From the NCBI GenBank assembly GCA_963667625.1, contig OY763921.1, positions 713,963-777,962 on the forward strand: a stretch of DNA of 64,000 nt, given 5' to 3'. The notes beneath the pieces were generated by a model. That model was not told the origin of the DNA. It made no database searches and worked only from the letters and a program-made list of their open reading frames with translations. Each line of letters begins with the position of its first letter. The first letter of the stretch is position 1. Below are positions 34,351-58,022 of the stretch, piece by piece. Origin of the DNA: Thermodesulfobacteriota bacterium (GTDB lineage Bacteria > Desulfobacterota_D > UBA1144 > Nemesobacterales > Nemesobacteraceae). The translations under genes were made by a program, and so were the position numbers.

Positions 34351-34950
34351 CCGCATCAGGTAATCTCCGCTTTCCCTGCTGAACTTGACTATTTTTTCGA
34401 TCTTTTCCTCGCTGAGGTCTTTTTCGATTCTTCTTACCGTTTTTTTTATCGCCAGGGAGTGCGCGGGATCTTCCTTTGCGTGAACCTCTATAAAAGTCGA
34501 GGGGTTGGGGACTGTTTCTAATTCGGGGAAAAGAAGCCCCGATACGTTTTCAAACAGATAGGAATGTCCGAGTATAGCAAGAGGAAACTGCTCGGCGGCG
34601 TTCTGCAGAAACTCATCGTACTCCCTTACGATCTCAAGGCAGAAAGGGTCTATCTCCTTTTCCCCGAGGTCCTTTAGGTCACGAAGGGCAATCTCGGCGT
34701 GCCCAAGCTCTCCCTGTGCGCAGGAATGGAACCTTTTGCTTAGGTAGGGGTCGGAGTCTTTGGTGTTTACGCTTGCCATGTTGACCGCTCTTTGACTCAG
34801 AAACTCGATTATATAAAAAGTGAGCAGGAATTTTGCGTAGGTTTCCCGGCTGAGGTTACCGGAAACAAGGCCCTTTACCTCTTCTTTGTCCTTCACCCTG
34901 CGAAGATAGGTTTCGACTTCAGTGTCAAGCAGCGATTCAAGCTTTTCCAT
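34330..34950 (-). CDS. Heme-oxygenase-like diiron oxidase (HDO; CADD/PqqC/TenA fold)
   Basis: E...ELGH...FE...HAKEDPAH ligand pattern; all-helical appearance. Confidence 0.65.
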   Translation of the reverse strand: MEKLESLLDTEVETYLRRVKDKEEVKGLVSGNLSRETYAKFLLTFYIIEFLSQRAVNMASVNTKDSDPYLSKRFHSCAQGELGHAEIALRDLKDLGEKEIDPFCLEIVREYDEFLQNAAEQFPLAILGHSYLFENVSGLLFPELETVPNPSTFIEVHAKEDPAHSLAIKKTVRRIEKDLSEEKIEKIVKFSRESGDYLMRLFDSLA

Positions 34951-35080
34951 TTCGTTTTTTCCAGAATAAAATTCAGAACGACTATTATAATATAGAAATC
35001 CATATTGTTAATTGTTCCCGCCGTTTTTCGGGTTGACTGCGCCATTTGGCTCAGGAACCATTAGGAAGCGTTGCTTTTCC

Positions 35081-35157
35081 GCGCCCGTAGCCCAACTGGA
35101 CAGAGCGCTTGACTACGGATCAAGAGGTTGGGGGTTCGAATCCCTCCGGGCGCGCCA
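35081..35157 (+). tRNA. tRNA-Arg(ACG)
   Basis: GCGCCCG...CGGGCGC-GCCA, anticodon loop CTACGGA. Confidence 0.97.
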
Positions 35158-35258
35158 TTTTCGTTTTCATTCCTTAAGAAACTACTTAACACTTTTAAAT
35201 TCAGCTGCACCGTTTTTGCGTCGACTGCAACGCATGTTAGCCATTTGATTACAGTTTG

Positions 35259-35567
35259 TTACCGCTTTTCGGGCGGTGTCGATTTGATCTCAGCTGCAAA
35301 TTGTGCATGAGCCTCCGGGTCAACGGGCCTGTGTTTGATCTTTGTGCTAGCAGGATTCTTGCCAAGGTAGTTTTCGTCTTTCCAATCTGTAGATGGTCTT
35401 ATTGGTCTTGGTTCGAAGCCTCCACCGCAACTGGGGCAGACATTGTCCAAAACAGTATCAACGCATGTGGTGCAAAACGTACATTCATATGTACAGATAC
35501 GTGCTTCTAGTGAGTCGGGTGGCAAAGCCCTGTTGCAGTGCTAGCAGGTTGGTCTGAGCTCCAACAT
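35259..35567 (-). pseudogene. DUF1272 family gene with in-frame amber stop at codon 9
   Basis: RBS AAGGAG, then MLELRPTC*HCNRALPPDSLEARICTYECTFC; TAG at 35541-35543. Confidence 0.8.
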
Positions 35568-35594
35568 GCTATCTCTCCTTTTCTATTTATGAAA

Positions 35595-36353
35595 TCAGGT
35601 CGTTTTTTTATTTGCTATCCTGATCCCTCGTATTATCAGGACCGCCGCGGCATATGAAAGGATAATGACGGGTCCGGCAGGCATATCGAACGCTACGGCA
35701 AAGGCGATACCGGAAAGAACCGCCGCCACTCCGCAGAGCCACGCTATAAGATACGGCCTTTTGACGTGTACAGCGGCCAAAGCCGGGAGTATAAGGCTTG
35801 CAAAGACAACATAGACGCCAACCAGTTGAACCGATGAGGTGATGGCGAGAGCGAAGAGCAGGTAAAAGCCCATGTTGCTTCGCACCCCGGGCTTGGAAAA
35901 CCAAGCCAGCAATATCAGCGCGTAAATAGGTGCGTGCTTCGCTACGTCTGTCCATGTTACAAACAGCATCTGTCCCGAAAGCAGGTGCTTTACTTCATCT
36001 CCGCCGTGAGGATGATCGGCGAGGAGCAAAAGCGCCAGGGACGCGGCCAAAATGAAGGCGCATCCTATGATCGCTTCCTGTCGCTCGGGCATTGCCGTTT
36101 CCACCTTGCGGAAAAACAGCCCTGCCGCGACCGCGCAGCCAAGCGCTATGAACTGGATCAGCCACGGGGACGGATCATGGATAACCATGTTGCCGACCAC
36201 AAGCCCGAGTCCCGCAATCTGCGCCACTGCAAGATCAATAAAGATGATGCCGCGGCGGAGCACCTCAATACCAAGAGGAGCGTGTGTGAGCGCGATCATG
36301 AGGCCGGCCGCCACTGCGGGCCCGATTATTTCCAGGAGTTCACTGCCGAACAT
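35595..36353 (-). CDS. Metal ABC-3 family permease (ZnuB/MntB-like)
   Basis: GIEVLRRGIIFIDLAVAQIAGLG, GVYVVFASLILPA; hydrophobic. Confidence 0.88.
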   Translation of the reverse strand: MFGSELLEIIGPAVAAGLMIALTHAPLGIEVLRRGIIFIDLAVAQIAGLGLVVGNMVIHDPSPWLIQFIALGCAVAAGLFFRKVETAMPERQEAIIGCAFILAASLALLLLADHPHGGDEVKHLLSGQMLFVTWTDVAKHAPIYALILLAWFSKPGVRSNMGFYLLFALAITSSVQLVGVYVVFASLILPALAAVHVKRPYLIAWLCGVAAVLSGIAFAVAFDMPAGPVIILSYAAAVLIIRGIRIANKKTT

Positions 36354-37260
36354 CGTATGTCCCTCTCAACAAAGCTATAGTTCTGTCAAACAGCGCGAAC
36401 AGATCGCCGCTTTGCTCGTCACCGCCAACGGTGTAAGGAAGCACGATTGCCCTTGTACCGGTTTTCTCCGACAACCACTCGCTTGCGTCATCAGGATCGG
36501 AAGGGGTACGGATAATTACGTCCGCCGGACTGCTTCTTAACTTTCGCAGCAAATTCTTCAGATGAGAAGTTGTCGGCGGAATGCCGGGTTTTGGTTCAAG
36601 TGTCCCCACTTGCTTTATTCCGAGCCAGTCAATCAGATAAGTAAACGATTTGTGATGAACCACAACCGGTTTTCCTTTAAGTACGGCAGCCTCGGATTCC
36701 CATCGGGAAATCGCCTTGCGCAGGCGGGATGAAAAATCCCGGTAACTATCCTTATAGAAAGAGGCATTTTCAGCGTCGATTCCAGAAAGCCGCTCCGCAA
36801 GCACTTCGCCCACCGTCATCAGGTTGTACGGATTCAGGTGCATGTGGGGGTTGCCTTCCGGATGCACGTCTCCCATGCTGCGGTCAACTACGACCGGAAC
36901 TTCAAGCATGGTGACCAGATCCGCAGCCATAAGGTAACCGATGGAGCCGGGTTGGAGGTCGGAACTTGCCTTCTGAAGCAGAATCGGAAGCCAGCCTATC
37001 TCAAGACTCGCACCCGAGCAGAGGAGCAAATCGGCTTTGCGTGCCTTGGATATCAGGCTTGGACGCGCCCGTATGTAATGGGGGTCCTGTATGGCCGAGG
37101 TAGCTGAAAACGCTTCCACCTTGTCACCGCCTATTTCTTGGGCCAGTGCCGCCCATTCCGGTTCGCAGGCAAATACTTTTACCTTTGCGAAAGAATATGC
37201 CGGGGCCACGAAAAGCAGCCCCGGCAGGAGGATGGAAAGGAAAGTAAGGTAACGTTTCAT
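36340..37260 (-). CDS. Cluster A-I metal-binding protein (ZnuA/TroA family); start reassigned to 37260
   Basis: Signal peptide, QDPH, GDVHPEGNPHMHL, HKSFTYL, EPKPGIPP. Confidence 0.9.
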   Translation of the reverse strand: MKRYLTFLSILLPGLLFVAPAYSFAKVKVFACEPEWAALAQEIGGDKVEAFSATSAIQDPHYIRARPSLISKARKADLLLCSGASLEIGWLPILLQKASSDLQPGSIGYLMAADLVTMLEVPVVVDRSMGDVHPEGNPHMHLNPYNLMTVGEVLAERLSGIDAENASFYKDSYRDFSSRLRKAISRWESEAAVLKGKPVVVHHKSFTYLIDWLGIKQVGTLEPKPGIPPTTSHLKNLLRKLRSSPADVIIRTPSDPDDASEWLSEKTGTRAIVLPYTVGGDEQSGDLFALFDRTIALLRGTYDVRQ

Positions 37261-37273
37261 GCTGCGGTTGCTC

Positions 37274-38707
37274 TTAGTATTTATGCGCGGCGTGGGCACC
37301 TATGCCCATTATGTACTGGAGCAGAATCTGGTTGTCGCTTAGATCCTCTCCTACTTTTTCGTAGTTGTACTGAAGGCGTATACGCGAGAACTCGCTGTTT
37401 GACCAGTCGCCCATGACCGCTACCGCGTAGGGGTCGTGATCTATCCCTGAATCCTCGGGAGAGTATATCTGGGAATAGCGCGTGCCTATTCTCCATTTCG
37501 GCGAGAACTTGAAAACCCCTTGCGCGTACCAGCCATGGCTTCCCCCGTCGAGATGCTCTTCGTGAACTTCGTCTCCTTCCGCAAGAGTATAGATGCCTTC
37601 TTCATCGCGCCAGAAATACTCGCCCTGGAGAAGCACCTCTTTTTCGCGGGCGTTTCCGGTGGGGGCCCACACGTAGCGGAGATCAAGCGCGTAGAGTCTC
37701 GTGTCGCCCGTGAACATGCCGGCGGTGAAGAACTCCTCGAAATCCTCCTCGTGCTCTTCTTCATGTTCTTCCTCATGACCATGCTCGTCTTCGGCGGCAT
37801 GCTCTCCCTCTTCTTCGTGTCCATGAGTGCCGCCACCGCGGCCGCTTGCCTCTCCGTCAAGCAGATACCCCCCGATTCTCCAGGATGAATTCTCTCCTAT
37901 GTCGCCGCCTACCCGCAAGAAGGCGCTGAATGAGTTTATGTCGTTACCCTCAGCTCCCGCAAACGGGAAATCGTCTCCGCGGAAAACACCGCCTCCCGCC
38001 TCGACATAGAAGTCGGTTGGGAGCACGTATGAAATCTGCGCCCCGGTATCGTTAAAGGCCTTGTCGAGAAACACCCTGTATGGCAGGGGGCGGTCGGCGA
38101 AATCGTCAGAGTGGGAGTGATGCTCGTTCAGGTATCCCATAGTCCAGAACGCGCGGCCCATTCTTATGCTTGCTCCCGCTGGAAGCCCGAGGCCGGGAAG
38201 GGTCTCCACGTATGCTTCCTCAAGCTCTATCTCGACCCCGTCTCCATGGTCTGCAAGAGCCGTGGTTATGTGACCGTAGAATTTATCGTCAACGCTTGTC
38301 GAAAAATTAAATTCGGTTTCCCCGAGAGAGATTCCTTCCGCCCCGCGTTCTCCCTCGTGTCCCAGGACAAACCCGGGAATTTCGTCCTCATCCGAAGAAA
38401 AGGCGGCGAATCGTCCGCCCAGTATCGCCCCGATTGAAGGATTGAGGTTCCTGTTGTAGATGACCCTGCTGGGGTAGGCGCTATCCTTGCTCTTCGAGTA
38501 AGTGGTTTTAGCCTGAGATGCTTCGGTTTCCATCTCGGCGAGTTTTTCTTCCATCTTTAAAATCCGGTTCTCATACTCCGATCTCATGGTCTGTATCTCC
38601 TTTCTTAAAGCTTCTATATCCTGGTCGGAAGCGGCAGAGGCGGAGATGTGAGAAAATGGTAAAATGGCAAAAAACGCGGTTATGACCGCGAAACGTAATG
38701 TATTCAT
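37274..38707 (-). CDS. Outer-membrane beta-barrel protein with His/Glu-rich insert (putative metal porin/receptor)
   Basis: Signal peptide, coiled coil, alternating beta-strands, LNEHHSHSDDF, HGHEEEGEH...HEEEHEEEHEE, C-terminal GAHAAHKY. Confidence 0.75.
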   Translation of the reverse strand: MNTLRFAVITAFFAILPFSHISASAASDQDIEALRKEIQTMRSEYENRILKMEEKLAEMETEASQAKTTYSKSKDSAYPSRVIYNRNLNPSIGAILGGRFAAFSSDEDEIPGFVLGHEGERGAEGISLGETEFNFSTSVDDKFYGHITTALADHGDGVEIELEEAYVETLPGLGLPAGASIRMGRAFWTMGYLNEHHSHSDDFADRPLPYRVFLDKAFNDTGAQISYVLPTDFYVEAGGGVFRGDDFPFAGAEGNDINSFSAFLRVGGDIGENSSWRIGGYLLDGEASGRGGGTHGHEEEGEHAAEDEHGHEEEHEEEHEEDFEEFFTAGMFTGDTRLYALDLRYVWAPTGNAREKEVLLQGEYFWRDEEGIYTLAEGDEVHEEHLDGGSHGWYAQGVFKFSPKWRIGTRYSQIYSPEDSGIDHDPYAVAVMGDWSNSEFSRIRLQYNYEKVGEDLSDNQILLQYIMGIGAHAAHKY

Positions 38708-38711
38708 TTTT

Positions 38712-38796
38712 TCCTCCTTAAGTTTAAAAAGAAACTACTGTTTCCCGATTTTGTACTCGGGAAACCCTGAAAAATTTCTTTACTGCTTTAGGAGGA
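38712..38796 (-). promoter_or_regulatory. SD-sequestering nested hairpin downstream of leader ORF 1
   Basis: UCCUCCUAAAG (38786-96) pairs with CUUAAGGAGGA (38712-22); AAAGAAAU (38774-81) pairs with GUUUCUUU (38728-35); inner 9-bp stem at 38740-65. Confidence 0.75.
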
Positions 38797-39072
38797 GAGG
38801 GGAGGTCCGCGGGTGATTCCCGCATCGTAATTGTCCCGAACGATTATAACGTCAGTGGGTGACTGTGGGATGTGTTCCGCATGGCGAAGAACACAGGCCC
38901 CACTCATGGCGCCGGGACTTGTGTAGTCCTGATACTTGGCGTTAAGACAGATCTCGCAGGCAGTTCCCTCATGTTCGTGTTCCAAGGAACCGTACTCGGC
39001 CGCATGGACAAAGGAGAACATCTGCGCTCCCAGGAAAGCGATTGTCAGTAGTAAGGAAAGTGCCTTGCTCAT
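38788..39072 (-). CDS. DUF2946/CutF/CruR-like secreted leader peptide with CxxC and C-terminal RGPP
   Basis: Signal peptide ending VHA, HEHEGTACEIC, ends ITRGPPLSS*. Confidence 0.8.
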   Translation of the reverse strand: MSKALSLLLTIAFLGAQMFSFVHAAEYGSLEHEHEGTACEICLNAKYQDYTSPGAMSGACVLRHAEHIPQSPTDVIIVRDNYDAGITRGPPLSS

Positions 39073-39080
39073 CTTTATTG

Positions 39081-39105
39081 TTAAATGAGAAATATTTTCA
39101 TTTAA
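39081..39105. promoter_or_regulatory. Fur-family operator-like palindrome
   Basis: TTAAATGAGAAATATTTTCATTTAA, 8-bp perfect arms, 8 bp upstream of the leader start codon. Confidence 0.65.
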
Positions 39106-39254
39106 TTTACCTTAGAAAAAAGTGCGGTGTCAATGATGTGAACAAGGTGGAGAGGAAAACATTGGTGTTAAAATCTCTATCAGCTTGTCAAAGATTACAC
39201 AATTGTACCACGGGTATTACACACCACAGTCTCAATTAAGGCTGCTTGCAATAG

Positions 39255-40109
39255 TCAGTCATCCTCGAATTCGATTTCTCGAGCGATTACAGTTCCTGAA
39301 CTTGTTCTCGAGCCTTCGACTTCTATGCGTCTGCCGACGGCGAGGTCATTGGCATTGCCGTGCTCAAAGCGGGTTGAAGAATTGTGTATTACGAGGGTGC
39401 TGCCGAGAAGGAAGGATTGGGAGTCAACAATGCTGGTGATTCTGCCCTCAATTTCATAGTAATCATCATAATAATTGTCATCATCGTCGTCGTTATTATG
39501 GTAGTAATCATCGTCATATTCTCCATCCTCGAACTCGATTTCTCGGGCTGTTATGGTTCCCGAACTTGTTCTTGAGCCTTCGACTTCTACGCGTCTGCCG
39601 ACGGCGAGGTCATTGGTGTTGCCGTATTCAAAGCGGGTGGAGGAATCATGCGTTATCAGGGTGTTGCCCAGGAAAAAGGAACGAGAATCAACAATGCTGG
39701 TGATTGCGCCCTCGATCTCGTAATAGCCCTCGTAATCATCGTCGTAGTCTCCATCCTTAAATTCAATCTCTCGAGCTGTGGCGGTTCCCGGAGTTATTCT
39801 TGAGCCTTCGACTTCTACGCGTCTGCCGACGGCGAGGTCATTGGCGTTACCGTATTCAAAGCGGGTTGAGGAGTCGTGAATTATGAGGGTGCTGCCAAGA
39901 AAGAAGGACTGGGAGTTAACAATGCTTGTGATTGGGCCCTCGATCTCGTAATTGGAAGCGATATTTCTTAACCCCGTGTCAGTCTGTTCTGTAGGTCTTG
40001 CTGTATCGTTTGTTTCTGTGTTGTCGGTATTTCCACCGCTACAGGCTATCGCACCGAGCATGAGTAGCAAAGCTACAACTGCTAACCTTAGAGAATTGTT
40101 GATTAACAT
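39255..40109 (-). CDS. Lipoprotein with three DUF5666-like repeats
   Basis: Lipobox GAIAC; three 66-aa repeats (YEIEG.IT...FEYG...LAVGRRVEVEG...AREIEF). Confidence 0.8.
   Translation of the reverse strand: MLINNSLRLAVVALLLMLGAIACSGGNTDNTETNDTARPTEQTDTGLRNIASNYEIEGPITSIVNSQSFFLGSTLIIHDSSTRFEYGNANDLAVGRRVEVEGSRITPGTATAREIEFKDGDYDDDYEGYYEIEGAITSIVDSRSFFLGNTLITHDSSTRFEYGNTNDLAVGRRVEVEGSRTSSGTITAREIEFEDGEYDDDYYHNNDDDDDNYYDDYYEIEGRITSIVDSQSFLLGSTLVIHNSSTRFEHGNANDLAVGRRIEVEGSRTSSGTVIAREIEFEDD
39261..39950 (-). repeat. Three ~198-bp intragenic direct repeats
   Basis: Units 39753-39950, 39525-39722, 39261-39458 share long identical DNA runs such as GAGCCTTCGACTTCTA(C/T)GCGTCTGCCGACGGCGAGGTCATTGG. 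Confidence 0.9.
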
Positions 40110-57597: not shown

Positions 57598-57678
57598 CTC
57601 CTGAGTATCGATTATGGCCTGGCGACGCCGAAGCGAAGCCGTTTATAGCGCGCGGGCGCGCGCAAGTTTGCTCAGGAG
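57598..57678 (-). promoter_or_regulatory. SD-sequestering multibranch structure downstream of leader ORF 2
   Basis: CUCCUGAG (57671-78, spanning the leader stop) is the exact complement of CUCAGGAG (57598-605, the RBS); encloses a GCGCGC stem (57648-63) and a cUUCGg hairpin (57621-40). Confidence 0.75.
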
Positions 57679-58022
57679 AGGCGTTTTGGAGGTCGGAAAT
57701 GGGTTTCGATCTGGCGGGAGGACAGAAGCTGATCGGCAAGAATTCCGACAGCAGTTCCCCCATGATGATCTTTTAATTCTTCAAGTGGCAGTGCGTTTGT
57801 CTGGACACAATGCTGGCAATCACAGCCATCGCATTGATCGGAGCTTCTATCTTCCGAATCTTTTGTTTCATGGCATGGCATGTCCATGTCGGCGTCCATC
57901 TGTATTTCGGCGGAAGCCTTGTCCATGTTCATTGGACATGTGGAGAAAGCGTTCGCCATGCCGCCGGTAAAAAACAATGCGACAAATGTTACCAGTAGTA
58001 CTGTTGTTTTAATGGTGTCCAT
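57672..58022 (-). CDS. CopL/DUF2946-like secreted Met/Cys/His-rich leader ending FRPP
   Basis: Signal peptide ending ANA, MDADMDMPCH, CDGCDCQHC, ends HFRPPKRLS*. Confidence 0.75.
   Translation of the reverse strand: MDTIKTTVLLVTFVALFFTGGMANAFSTCPMNMDKASAEIQMDADMDMPCHETKDSEDRSSDQCDGCDCQHCVQTNALPLEELKDHHGGTAVGILADQLLSSRQIETHFRPPKRLS

Follow-up and report, generated by a model that had tools for sequence, protein, structure and literature searches.

A candidate ribosome-arrest leader with a Shine-Dalgarno-masking hairpin ahead of a porin/ZnuA/ABC-3 operon in a Thermodesulfobacteriota bacterium

What is the role of a small open reading frame (ORF) that encodes an exported, histidine- and cysteine-bearing peptide, stands directly ahead of metal-transport genes and ends in codons able to pair with the next gene's ribosome-binding site? 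The question is raised by a locus in a 64,000-nucleotide stretch of Thermodesulfobacteriota DNA (contig OY763921.1 of assembly GCA_963667625.1, positions 713,963 to 777,962), hereafter called the window. The ORF (P0001, 38788-39072, minus strand, on which all window features given below lie unless stated otherwise) comprises 94 codons and a stop, with the translation MSKALSLLLTIAFLGAQMFSFVHAAEYGSLEHEHEGTACEICLNAKYQDYTSPGAMSGACVLRHAEHIPQSPTDVIIVRDNYDAGITRGPPLSS, and is followed by a porin-like gene and by genes for a ZnuA/TroA-type binding protein and an ABC-3 permease. Our analysis indicates that it is probably a regulatory leader of the CruR/CutF type, which would govern translation of the porin-like gene and, through that gene, the ZnuA/ABC-3 operon. 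The mechanism is most likely a hybrid, in which a sensor and spacing ruler of the CruR type are combined with a hairpin of the SecM/CutF type that masks the Shine-Dalgarno (SD) sequence.

The leader reads MSKALSLLLTIAFLGAQMFSFVHAAEYGSLEHEHEGTACEICLNAKYQ...AGITRGPPLSS before its stop codon and contains HEHEGTACEIC. Its translation agrees with the initial annotation, which had described an exported peptide with HEHEGTACEIC, RGPP at 38800-38811, LSS and a stop. The ORF is coding, as third codon positions are the most variable (82 variable sites, compared with 58 and 58 at the other two positions). A predicted export signal occupies residues 1-24 (39001-39072), with a Lys-containing n-region, about 20 hydrophobic residues and VHA/AE; the signal itself was read by eye from the sequence, and AlphaFold places residues 2-29 in a helix with a predicted local distance difference test score (pLDDT) of 91-93. 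Whether the signal is cleaved is uncertain, because H23 is invariant. This histidine is the first member of a putative metal site picked out by conservation, which consists of H23, H32, H34 and C39-E-I-C42 (38947-39006). The arrest motif R88 G89 P90 P91 (38800-38811) is invariant in both alignments, of close and of diverged homologues, and the stalled ribosome is predicted to have Pro90 (codon CCU) at its P site and Pro91 at its A site, a placement on the two Pro codons that we borrowed from the CruR toeprint (PMC12992588). AlphaFold gives the leader its signal helix and one further short helix and leaves the rest disordered, which would suit a nascent-chain sensor better than a stable protein. 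In the whole 1.86-Mb genome the leader is the sole convincing small ORF that ends in R[A/G]PP, and RGPP is not visibly depleted in this small proteome, as six RGPP and three AGPP occur among the long ORFs, so that depletion is not used as an argument. That RAPP and RGPP motifs stall ribosomes, as the initial annotation stated, is borne out by published work in which both gave robust arrest that was refractory to EF-P (PMC12992588).

The conservation of the peptide points to the same elements. We found 78 close homologues of the leader, all in Candidatus Dadabacteria-type metagenome-assembled genomes. Across 62 close homologues, I86, R88, G89, P90, P91, C39, E40 and C42 are invariant, and the arrest segment is the best-conserved part of the peptide in this close family, with an identity of 0.95 compared with 0.65 in the linker. 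A profile search of 1.84 billion cluster representatives yielded 116 proteins, nearly all of 92-110 residues, with the signature L..FL..Q..S..H.AEHG...H.H.G..C.I and a C-terminus consisting of PRAPP or RGPP plus 3-5 residues. Two matches, P0082 and P0184, were rejected as spurious, being long repeat proteins without the His/Cys motif. A second homologue search, with the broad alignment as query, mostly recovered the close family again. In 100 diverged representatives H23, C39, R88, P90 and P91 are invariant despite a mean column identity of 26%, and H32 and H34 are at least 90% conserved. The second Cys of CxxC is found in just 24 of 110 representatives; the arrest motif is RAPP in 91 of them and RGPP in 19, and the tail that follows it has three residues in 61 and five in 26.

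Among the diverged representatives the linker between Cys and arrest motif is free in sequence and kept in length, such that the distance from Cys to Arg is 48 ± 1 in 100 of 110. In the window leader, exactly 45 residues intervene between CxxC and RGPP, and a tail of three residues follows.

At the RNA level, the leader stop codon (TAA, 38788-38790) is separated from the ATG of the porin-like gene at 38707 by a spacer of 80 nucleotides. The region 38690-38830 folds with a minimum free energy of -44.6 kcal/mol (z = -4.60), and none of 200 shuffled sequences was as stable. In this fold an anti-SD at 38786-38796, made up of UCCUCCU (the codons of Ser93 and Ser94 with the first base of the stop) and AAG, pairs with the SD region CUUAAGGAGGA of the porin-like gene (38712-38722), which forms the 3' arm of the outer helix. 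Seven base pairs join UCCUCCU (38796-38790) to AGGAGGA (38718-38712), and a second helix of three base pairs joins AAG (38788-38786) to CUU (38722-38720). Nested within them is an inner hairpin (38728-38781), in which a 9-bp helix (AAAGAAAUU/AGUUUCUUU) encloses a 9-bp hairpin (GUUUCCCGA/UCGGGAAAC); the central hairpin shows compensatory changes among relatives. The initial annotation had claimed that UCC UCC UAA AG pairs with the porin gene's ribosome-binding site within one nested spacer hairpin, and had named folding of this region as a check. The fold recovers the pairing as 7 + 3 bp, masks the SD and reproduces the nesting; the one correction is that a helix described as 8 bp has 9 bp, so that the arrangement is 7 + 3 + 9 + 9. 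The central hairpin with its U-rich stretch scored as weakly terminator-like, and the reading of it as an intrinsic terminator was dropped, given that the U-tract begins 5 nucleotides past the stem and is itself paired.

The masking goes beyond what chance would give. Opening the SD of the porin-like gene is predicted to cost 12.8 kcal/mol, whereas the median for the genome is 3.8 kcal/mol and the 95th percentile 9.1 kcal/mol, as calculated for 219 genes of the same genome with a GGAGG SD. The porin-like gene ranks fifth of the 219, below four identical values of 15.43 kcal/mol. These belong to the gene starts at C1:163955, 1019533, 1109314 and 1187674, probably all copies of a single repeated element whose SD is masked. 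We modelled the stalled state by masking the bases under a ribosome with Pro90 in the P site, up to +16, and with the ribosome so positioned at RGPP the cost drops from 12.8 to 1.0 kcal/mol. Across the family, the median cost is 7.4 kcal/mol for the free and 3.1 kcal/mol for the stalled state. Relative to the first P-site base, the anti-SD occupies +10 to +16, which places it under the stalled ribosome, and the pairing probability of the SD is at least 0.78 in 38 of 38 related spacers.

These features suggest the following scheme. The ribosome would arrest with Pro90 and Pro91 in its P and A sites, respectively, as in the toeprint of the CruR RAPP motif, and its footprint (to about +15) would cover the Gly-Pro-Pro CCUCC and UCCUCCU, thereby freeing the SD and allowing the porin gene to be translated. 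On release of the arrest, termination would take place three codons further on, the hairpin would re-form and initiation would be blocked; Rho may also act on the RNA that is left untranslated after release. At arrest, some 50 residues would separate the His/Cys site from the peptidyl-transferase centre, which would set this site just beyond the ribosome or the translocon. By analogy with CruR, and as would befit an uptake system, metal binding at this site would trigger release, so that plentiful metal would turn uptake off. An operator of Fur-family type over the promoter, described below, would add a transcriptional tier.

If the last codons of the leader serve as an anti-SD, they should bear the mark of it, and several lines of evidence agree with this. 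All 39 sequences use CCU for Pro90 (genome usage 20%) and 36 of 38 use UCC for the final Ser (genome usage 24.5%), and the Thr codon three positions upstream wanders through all four synonyms. The codon bias at Pro90 and at the last Ser indicates that the anti-SD is under selection at the nucleotide level. We tabulated 38 distinct tail/SD pairs with their register anchored, and at least 36 of them have a paired 7-bp core. The initial annotation had pointed to covariation across homologues as a check, and tail and SD do covary between lineages, from C-G to U-A: at core pair 6-29, 26 sequences have C-G, 9 have U-A and 2 have U-G, and at core pair 7-28, 33 have C-G, 1 has U-A and 2 have U-G. When partners were shuffled, none of 5000 trials matched the observed pairing, and the duplex energy was -12.4 kcal/mol for cognate tails and SDs compared with -11.0 kcal/mol for non-cognate ones (permutation p = 0.0009).

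The same holds far beyond the close family. In eight far-diverged loci, whose leaders are about 30-56% identical among themselves, every pyrimidine tail fits its own SD. At distant loci, for example, UUUUCCUAA pairs with UUAGGAAAA in L033, UUCUCCUAA with UUAGGAGAA in L032, UUUUCUCCU with AGGAGAAAA in L035, and UUCUUCUAAA with UUUAGGAGAA in L025. Family-wide, Ser, Phe and Leu make up 60% of the tail residues, which fits codons picked for their pyrimidines. The position of the anti-SD was followed in spacer DNA of about 46 sequences, and in 44 of 46 the anti-SD is anchored 7-8 nucleotides past the second Pro codon (6-8 by automatic register), loci with five-residue tails included. Because this distance is constant at tails of three and of five residues, the anti-SD is tied to the arrest codons and not to the stop, an arrangement that the arrest model predicts and that plain coupling does not require.

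Plain translational coupling is one of three alternatives. Here any terminating ribosome would open the helix, no programmed arrest would take place, and RGPP would serve the mature peptide. As the anti-SD overlaps the stop codon, a terminating ribosome covers the anti-SD too, and with such a ribosome in place of a stalled one the median predicted opening energy is also low (3.6 kcal/mol). However, coupling leaves unexplained why R-[A/G]-P-P is invariant when the C-terminal half varies freely elsewhere, why the 48-residue ruler is fixed, and why the distance from anti-SD to Pro-Pro stays constant when the tail lengthens to five residues; in addition, RAPP and RGPP were strongly arresting in three tested translation systems (PMC12992588). 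On this balance we regard coupling without arrest as unlikely.

Another alternative is control of the CruR type only, in which a stalled ribosome would block Rho, release would permit termination before the porin gene, and the SD hairpin would be secondary. Rho is encoded in the genome, C exceeds G by about 10-13% from 38885 to 38780 (the 3' third of the leader, about 100 nucleotides), and CruR does work via Rho (PMC9426467). Nevertheless, the spacer is short (80 nucleotides compared with 162 in CruR), C-poor and almost fully paired, and covariation and codon-level selection fall on the SD pairing itself, and we consider exclusive control by Rho to be improbable to the same degree. Rho and SD masking could operate side by side, since porin mRNA that is not being translated would be open to Rho polarity, and a contribution of Rho at this locus is possible. 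Under the third alternative, the ORF would encode a stable protein that binds metal in the periplasm or acts there as a chaperone for uptake, and the hairpin would be ordinary intergenic structure or a weak terminator. This would account for the signal peptide, the His/Cys motifs, the co-transcription with transport genes and the terminator-like score, but it is very improbable in view of the predicted disorder, a linker conserved in length and not in sequence, a displaced and paired U-tract, and the fact that CruR and CutF proteins are undetectable in vivo (PMC9426467, PMC9973294).

Several observations weigh against a regulatory arrest leader and have to be set beside the evidence for it. 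Any ribosome that reaches the leader stop would open the outer helix, and RNA data alone cannot separate arrest from coupling. Several relatives mask the SD weakly (opening energy 2.7-4.2 kcal/mol), and many are predicted to keep a weak alternative hairpin between the U-rich stretch and the SD when a ribosome is at RGPP. RNAalifold found just a weak consensus (-3.3 kcal/mol) when run on 37 spacers aligned by plain MAFFT, and took the Pro-codon CCUCC as the partner. We attribute this weakness to the MAFFT alignment, which is not structural, and in place of RNAalifold relied on per-sequence folds, the register-anchored pair table and the test of cognate against non-cognate duplexes. The effect of metal is opposite in the two studied relatives, being relief of the stall in CruR and its induction in CutF. 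Finally, PF11162 (DUF2946) does not match the leader peptide at E <= 10.

The last point concerns family membership and deserves further comment. Scans of the leader peptide against Pfam and NCBIfam gave no match, and PF11162 found nothing in the whole genome at E <= 10. Against the 100 diverged relatives, the same profile gave 15 weak matches, the best at 2.4e-5; two of these relatives were inspected singly, and both score under the cut-off with C-termini that align to the end of the profile. We treat the leader as an unrecognised branch of the CruR/CutF superfamily, outside DUF2946 by profile and inside it by motifs, spacing and operon position. The earlier proposal that a stall at RGPP uncovers the SD is supported as to its architecture, for which motif invariance, the 45-residue ruler, the anchored anti-SD, covariation and codon selection all speak.

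The genomic context in relatives is consistent with a leader that belongs to the transport genes. Leaders on other contigs, about 30% identical to that of the window, stand ahead of porin orthologues. In L025, a leader only 32% identical to that of the window (P0182) heads a porin orthologue (55% identical), ZnuA and ABC-3. In seven further loci (L031-L037), found in a metagenome scan with a 20-sequence subset of the family alignment as query, the leader stands ahead of the beginning of a porin orthologue, and the porin orthologues behind distant leaders have 53-58% identity. More remote family members of 109 residues head genes for TonB-dependent receptors and have no pyrimidine tail. At L026 (6001-9629), the member P0191, which ends in RAPP-HFS, has no porin behind it; a 95-aa ORF comes next, and then a protein of 949 aa that has a haloacid-dehalogenase-type Hydrolase domain and may be a P-type ATPase.

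Of 24 related genomes, 13 carry a second copy of the entire cassette ahead of the ZnuA-type gene. The duplicate comprises the promoter, the operator palindrome, the leader, the hairpin spacer, the SD and the first ~27 codons of the porin, which encode its signal peptide, and the ZnuA-type gene behind it thereby carries the signal peptide of the porin. Such duplicates lie at L001 5004-5400, L003 5104-5471, L014 5095-5458 and 10 other loci; the window genome has a single copy. The duplication shows the unit to be portable and to be kept intact.

A sigma-70-like promoter ahead of the leader (TTGACA, 18 nucleotides, TAAATT; 39104-39133) matched the consensus at 10 of 12 positions in a scan, and all 24 related loci, as well as the duplicated copies, retain TTGACA and the -10 region. 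A candidate operator of Fur-family type, AAATGA[A/G]AA-TAT-TTCTCATTT (39081-39105, no strand assigned), picked out by conservation, is situated between the -10 element and the start of the leader. It forms a 9-3-9 palindrome, AAATGAGAA-TAT-TTCTCATTT, of the Fur-family 7-1-7 type, and overlaps the leader promoter. The palindrome is kept near letter for letter in 24 of 24 related loci and in the second copies; about one-third of the related loci have it in perfect form, and the window copy deviates at one base. A weaker copy with three mismatches lies outside the window, on the start of a Fur-family gene (C1:32094-32552), one of two in the genome and closer to Fur/PerR than to Zur. This copy suggests that the gene encodes an autoregulated cognate repressor. 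A genome-wide operator search gave this as the one further plausible site, and one extra site is too few to define a regulon or a metal.

The metal has to be considered from the protein side as well. When the ZnuA-like protein was aligned to PsaA, it showed His at three ligand positions and possibly Asp at the fourth, an arrangement that is TroA-like. For the direction of the response, release of the stall by metal, which would turn uptake off, would be the coherent choice for an importer under a Fur-type repressor. Immediately upstream of the leader promoter, the gene at 39255-40109 has a lipoprotein-like product of 284 aa, in which three DUF5666 repeats are accompanied by acidic, Asp/Tyr-rich linkers; in relatives such as L003, one or two DUF5666-type genes stand at the equivalent place.

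The genes behind the leader bear out the ZnuA/TroA-type operon of the initial annotation. The first (37274-38707) encodes a 477-aa protein that is predicted, with AlphaFold and Foldseek, to be a porin-like outer-membrane beta-barrel with an N-terminal coiled coil and a His/Glu-rich insert. It has no Pfam match. Its AlphaFold model, of modest confidence (pLDDT 58), has at least 15 strands besides the signal helix and a long N-terminal helix (residues 28-63), and the top Foldseek matches of the model are OmpT, AlgE, DcaP, OprO and OmpF, so that the label porin-like is reasonable for the modelled fold. The His/Glu-rich insert (residues ~296-330) is found in Dadabacteria-type copies only, where its length varies via DEHGHE-like repeats; distant porin orthologues have no insert and still carry the motifs NEHH.H.DDFADRPLPYR and GAH.AHKY. 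Next come the ZnuA/TroA-type metal-binding protein (36340-37299; PF01297, 2.4e-37) and the ABC-3, ZnuB-type, permease (35595-36353; PF00950, 8.4e-18). No ABC ATPase gene stands beside this pair in the window (34950-36353) or in L025 (3901-5587), where a SelO-like gene comes next.

A second leader of the same design was also observed in the window, at 57672-58022. It encodes 116 aa with Met/Cys/His-rich motifs and ends in HFRPPKRLS before its stop, and a stop-spanning CUCCUGAG pairs with CUCAGGAG at the SD of the next gene (57592 downstream). The genes that follow this second leader have weak matches to HMA and MerT.

What might this locus add? Metal-sensing arrest peptides were first described in 2022-2025, with CruR and CutF, and so far for copper only. 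The window locus and about 100 cluster representatives show that Pfam has missed a large branch of the CruR/CutF family. What is new in this branch is the operon coupled to the leader, with its porin, TroA/ZnuA-type binding protein and ABC-3 permease, and perhaps also the metal. More speculatively, the leader could be the first arrest peptide to sense a metal besides copper, namely Zn, Mn or Fe as judged from the TroA-like protein and the Fur-family operator, at the head of a widespread, undescribed import module made up of porin, binding protein and ATPase-less ABC-3 permease; the 48-residue ruler would then set a His3-Cys sensor at the exit of the ribosome or translocon when arrest occurs, and the Ser/Phe/Leu of the tail would be dictated by the anti-SD and not by the protein. 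We offer this wider proposal tentatively, and hold it with clearly less confidence than the assignment of the ORF as a leader.

The RNA logic of the locus is very clean, as the tail codons themselves constitute the anti-SD. The branch provides a compact, natural test bed, of about 365 nucleotides, for the way in which a nascent chain may report periplasmic or cytoplasmic metal to the ribosome, for whether metals other than copper use the same trick, and for what the 45/48-residue spacing measures. There is also a gain for annotation, since ORFs of this family are now listed as 'hypothetical protein' or have a miscalled start (77-aa versions).

Comparison with known systems places the leader between several precedents. 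SecM-secA of E. coli and the RAPP arrest peptides ApdA/ApdP (PMC10987492, PMC12992588) likewise belong to the R-A/G-P-P class, with an exported chain and an SD hairpin opened by the stall. They monitor the secretion machinery and have no metal site, whereas the His/Cys site at a fixed distance from the arrest point of the window leader suggests metal as the signal. A survey of small secreted RAPP/RGPP proteins upstream of metal-related genes (PMC12992588, Fig. 4) describes the same class, and its main text gives TonB receptors, YcnI, PCuAC and PepSY as the downstream classes, with no ZnuA/ABC-3 operon and no zinc. The main texts on these CruR, CutF and RAPP systems likewise do not mention a ZnuA-type operon or zinc, and a combined literature term search returned nothing relevant.

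CutF (Rhodobacter capsulatus, cutFOG; PMC9973294) is similarly an exported leader of DUF2946 type that carries a Cys metal motif and, at its C-terminus, a proline arrest sequence. In both CutF and the window leader, the stall is proposed to open a stem-loop masking the next gene's ribosome-binding site (for CutF, bioRxiv 10.1101/2025.02.05.636593). CutF differs in having a CXXXC motif and an EF-P-dependent motif of the PPP type, and in a stall that is induced by copper and turns on a detoxifying oxidase; the operon of the window is importer-like, so the opposite polarity would be expected here. Some CutF-like proteins may sense nickel or cobalt (PMC9973294). The initial annotation had cited both CruR and CutF as precedents for this kind of control: both are DUF2946 leaders, as it said, and the SD-masking stem-loop is a feature of CutF (and of SecM) only, CruR acting via Rho.

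The closest likeness is to CruR (Bp2923, Bordetella pertussis), also an exported leader and the first gene of a metal-import operon that opens with an outer-membrane importer. The window leader differs from it in several respects: it ends in RGPP and not RAPP, has 94 and not 145 residues, and has no DUF2946 match; its spacer is short and structured, with the SD masked by the last codons of the leader, whereas CruR has a 162-nucleotide spacer and is regulated by Rho-dependent termination, its stall being relieved by copper (PMC9426467); and its operon consists of porin, ZnuA and ABC-3, compared with TonB-dependent transporter and PepSY in CruR. Remote members of the leader family do precede TonB-dependent receptor genes, as CruR does. 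In CruR, CXXC lies at residues 90-93 and RAPP at 139-142 of 145, a spacing kept within 1-2 residues in more than 2000 DUF2946 proteins (PMC9426467). CruR and the window leader thus end alike: CXXC, exactly 45 residues, R-x-P-P, three residues and a stop.

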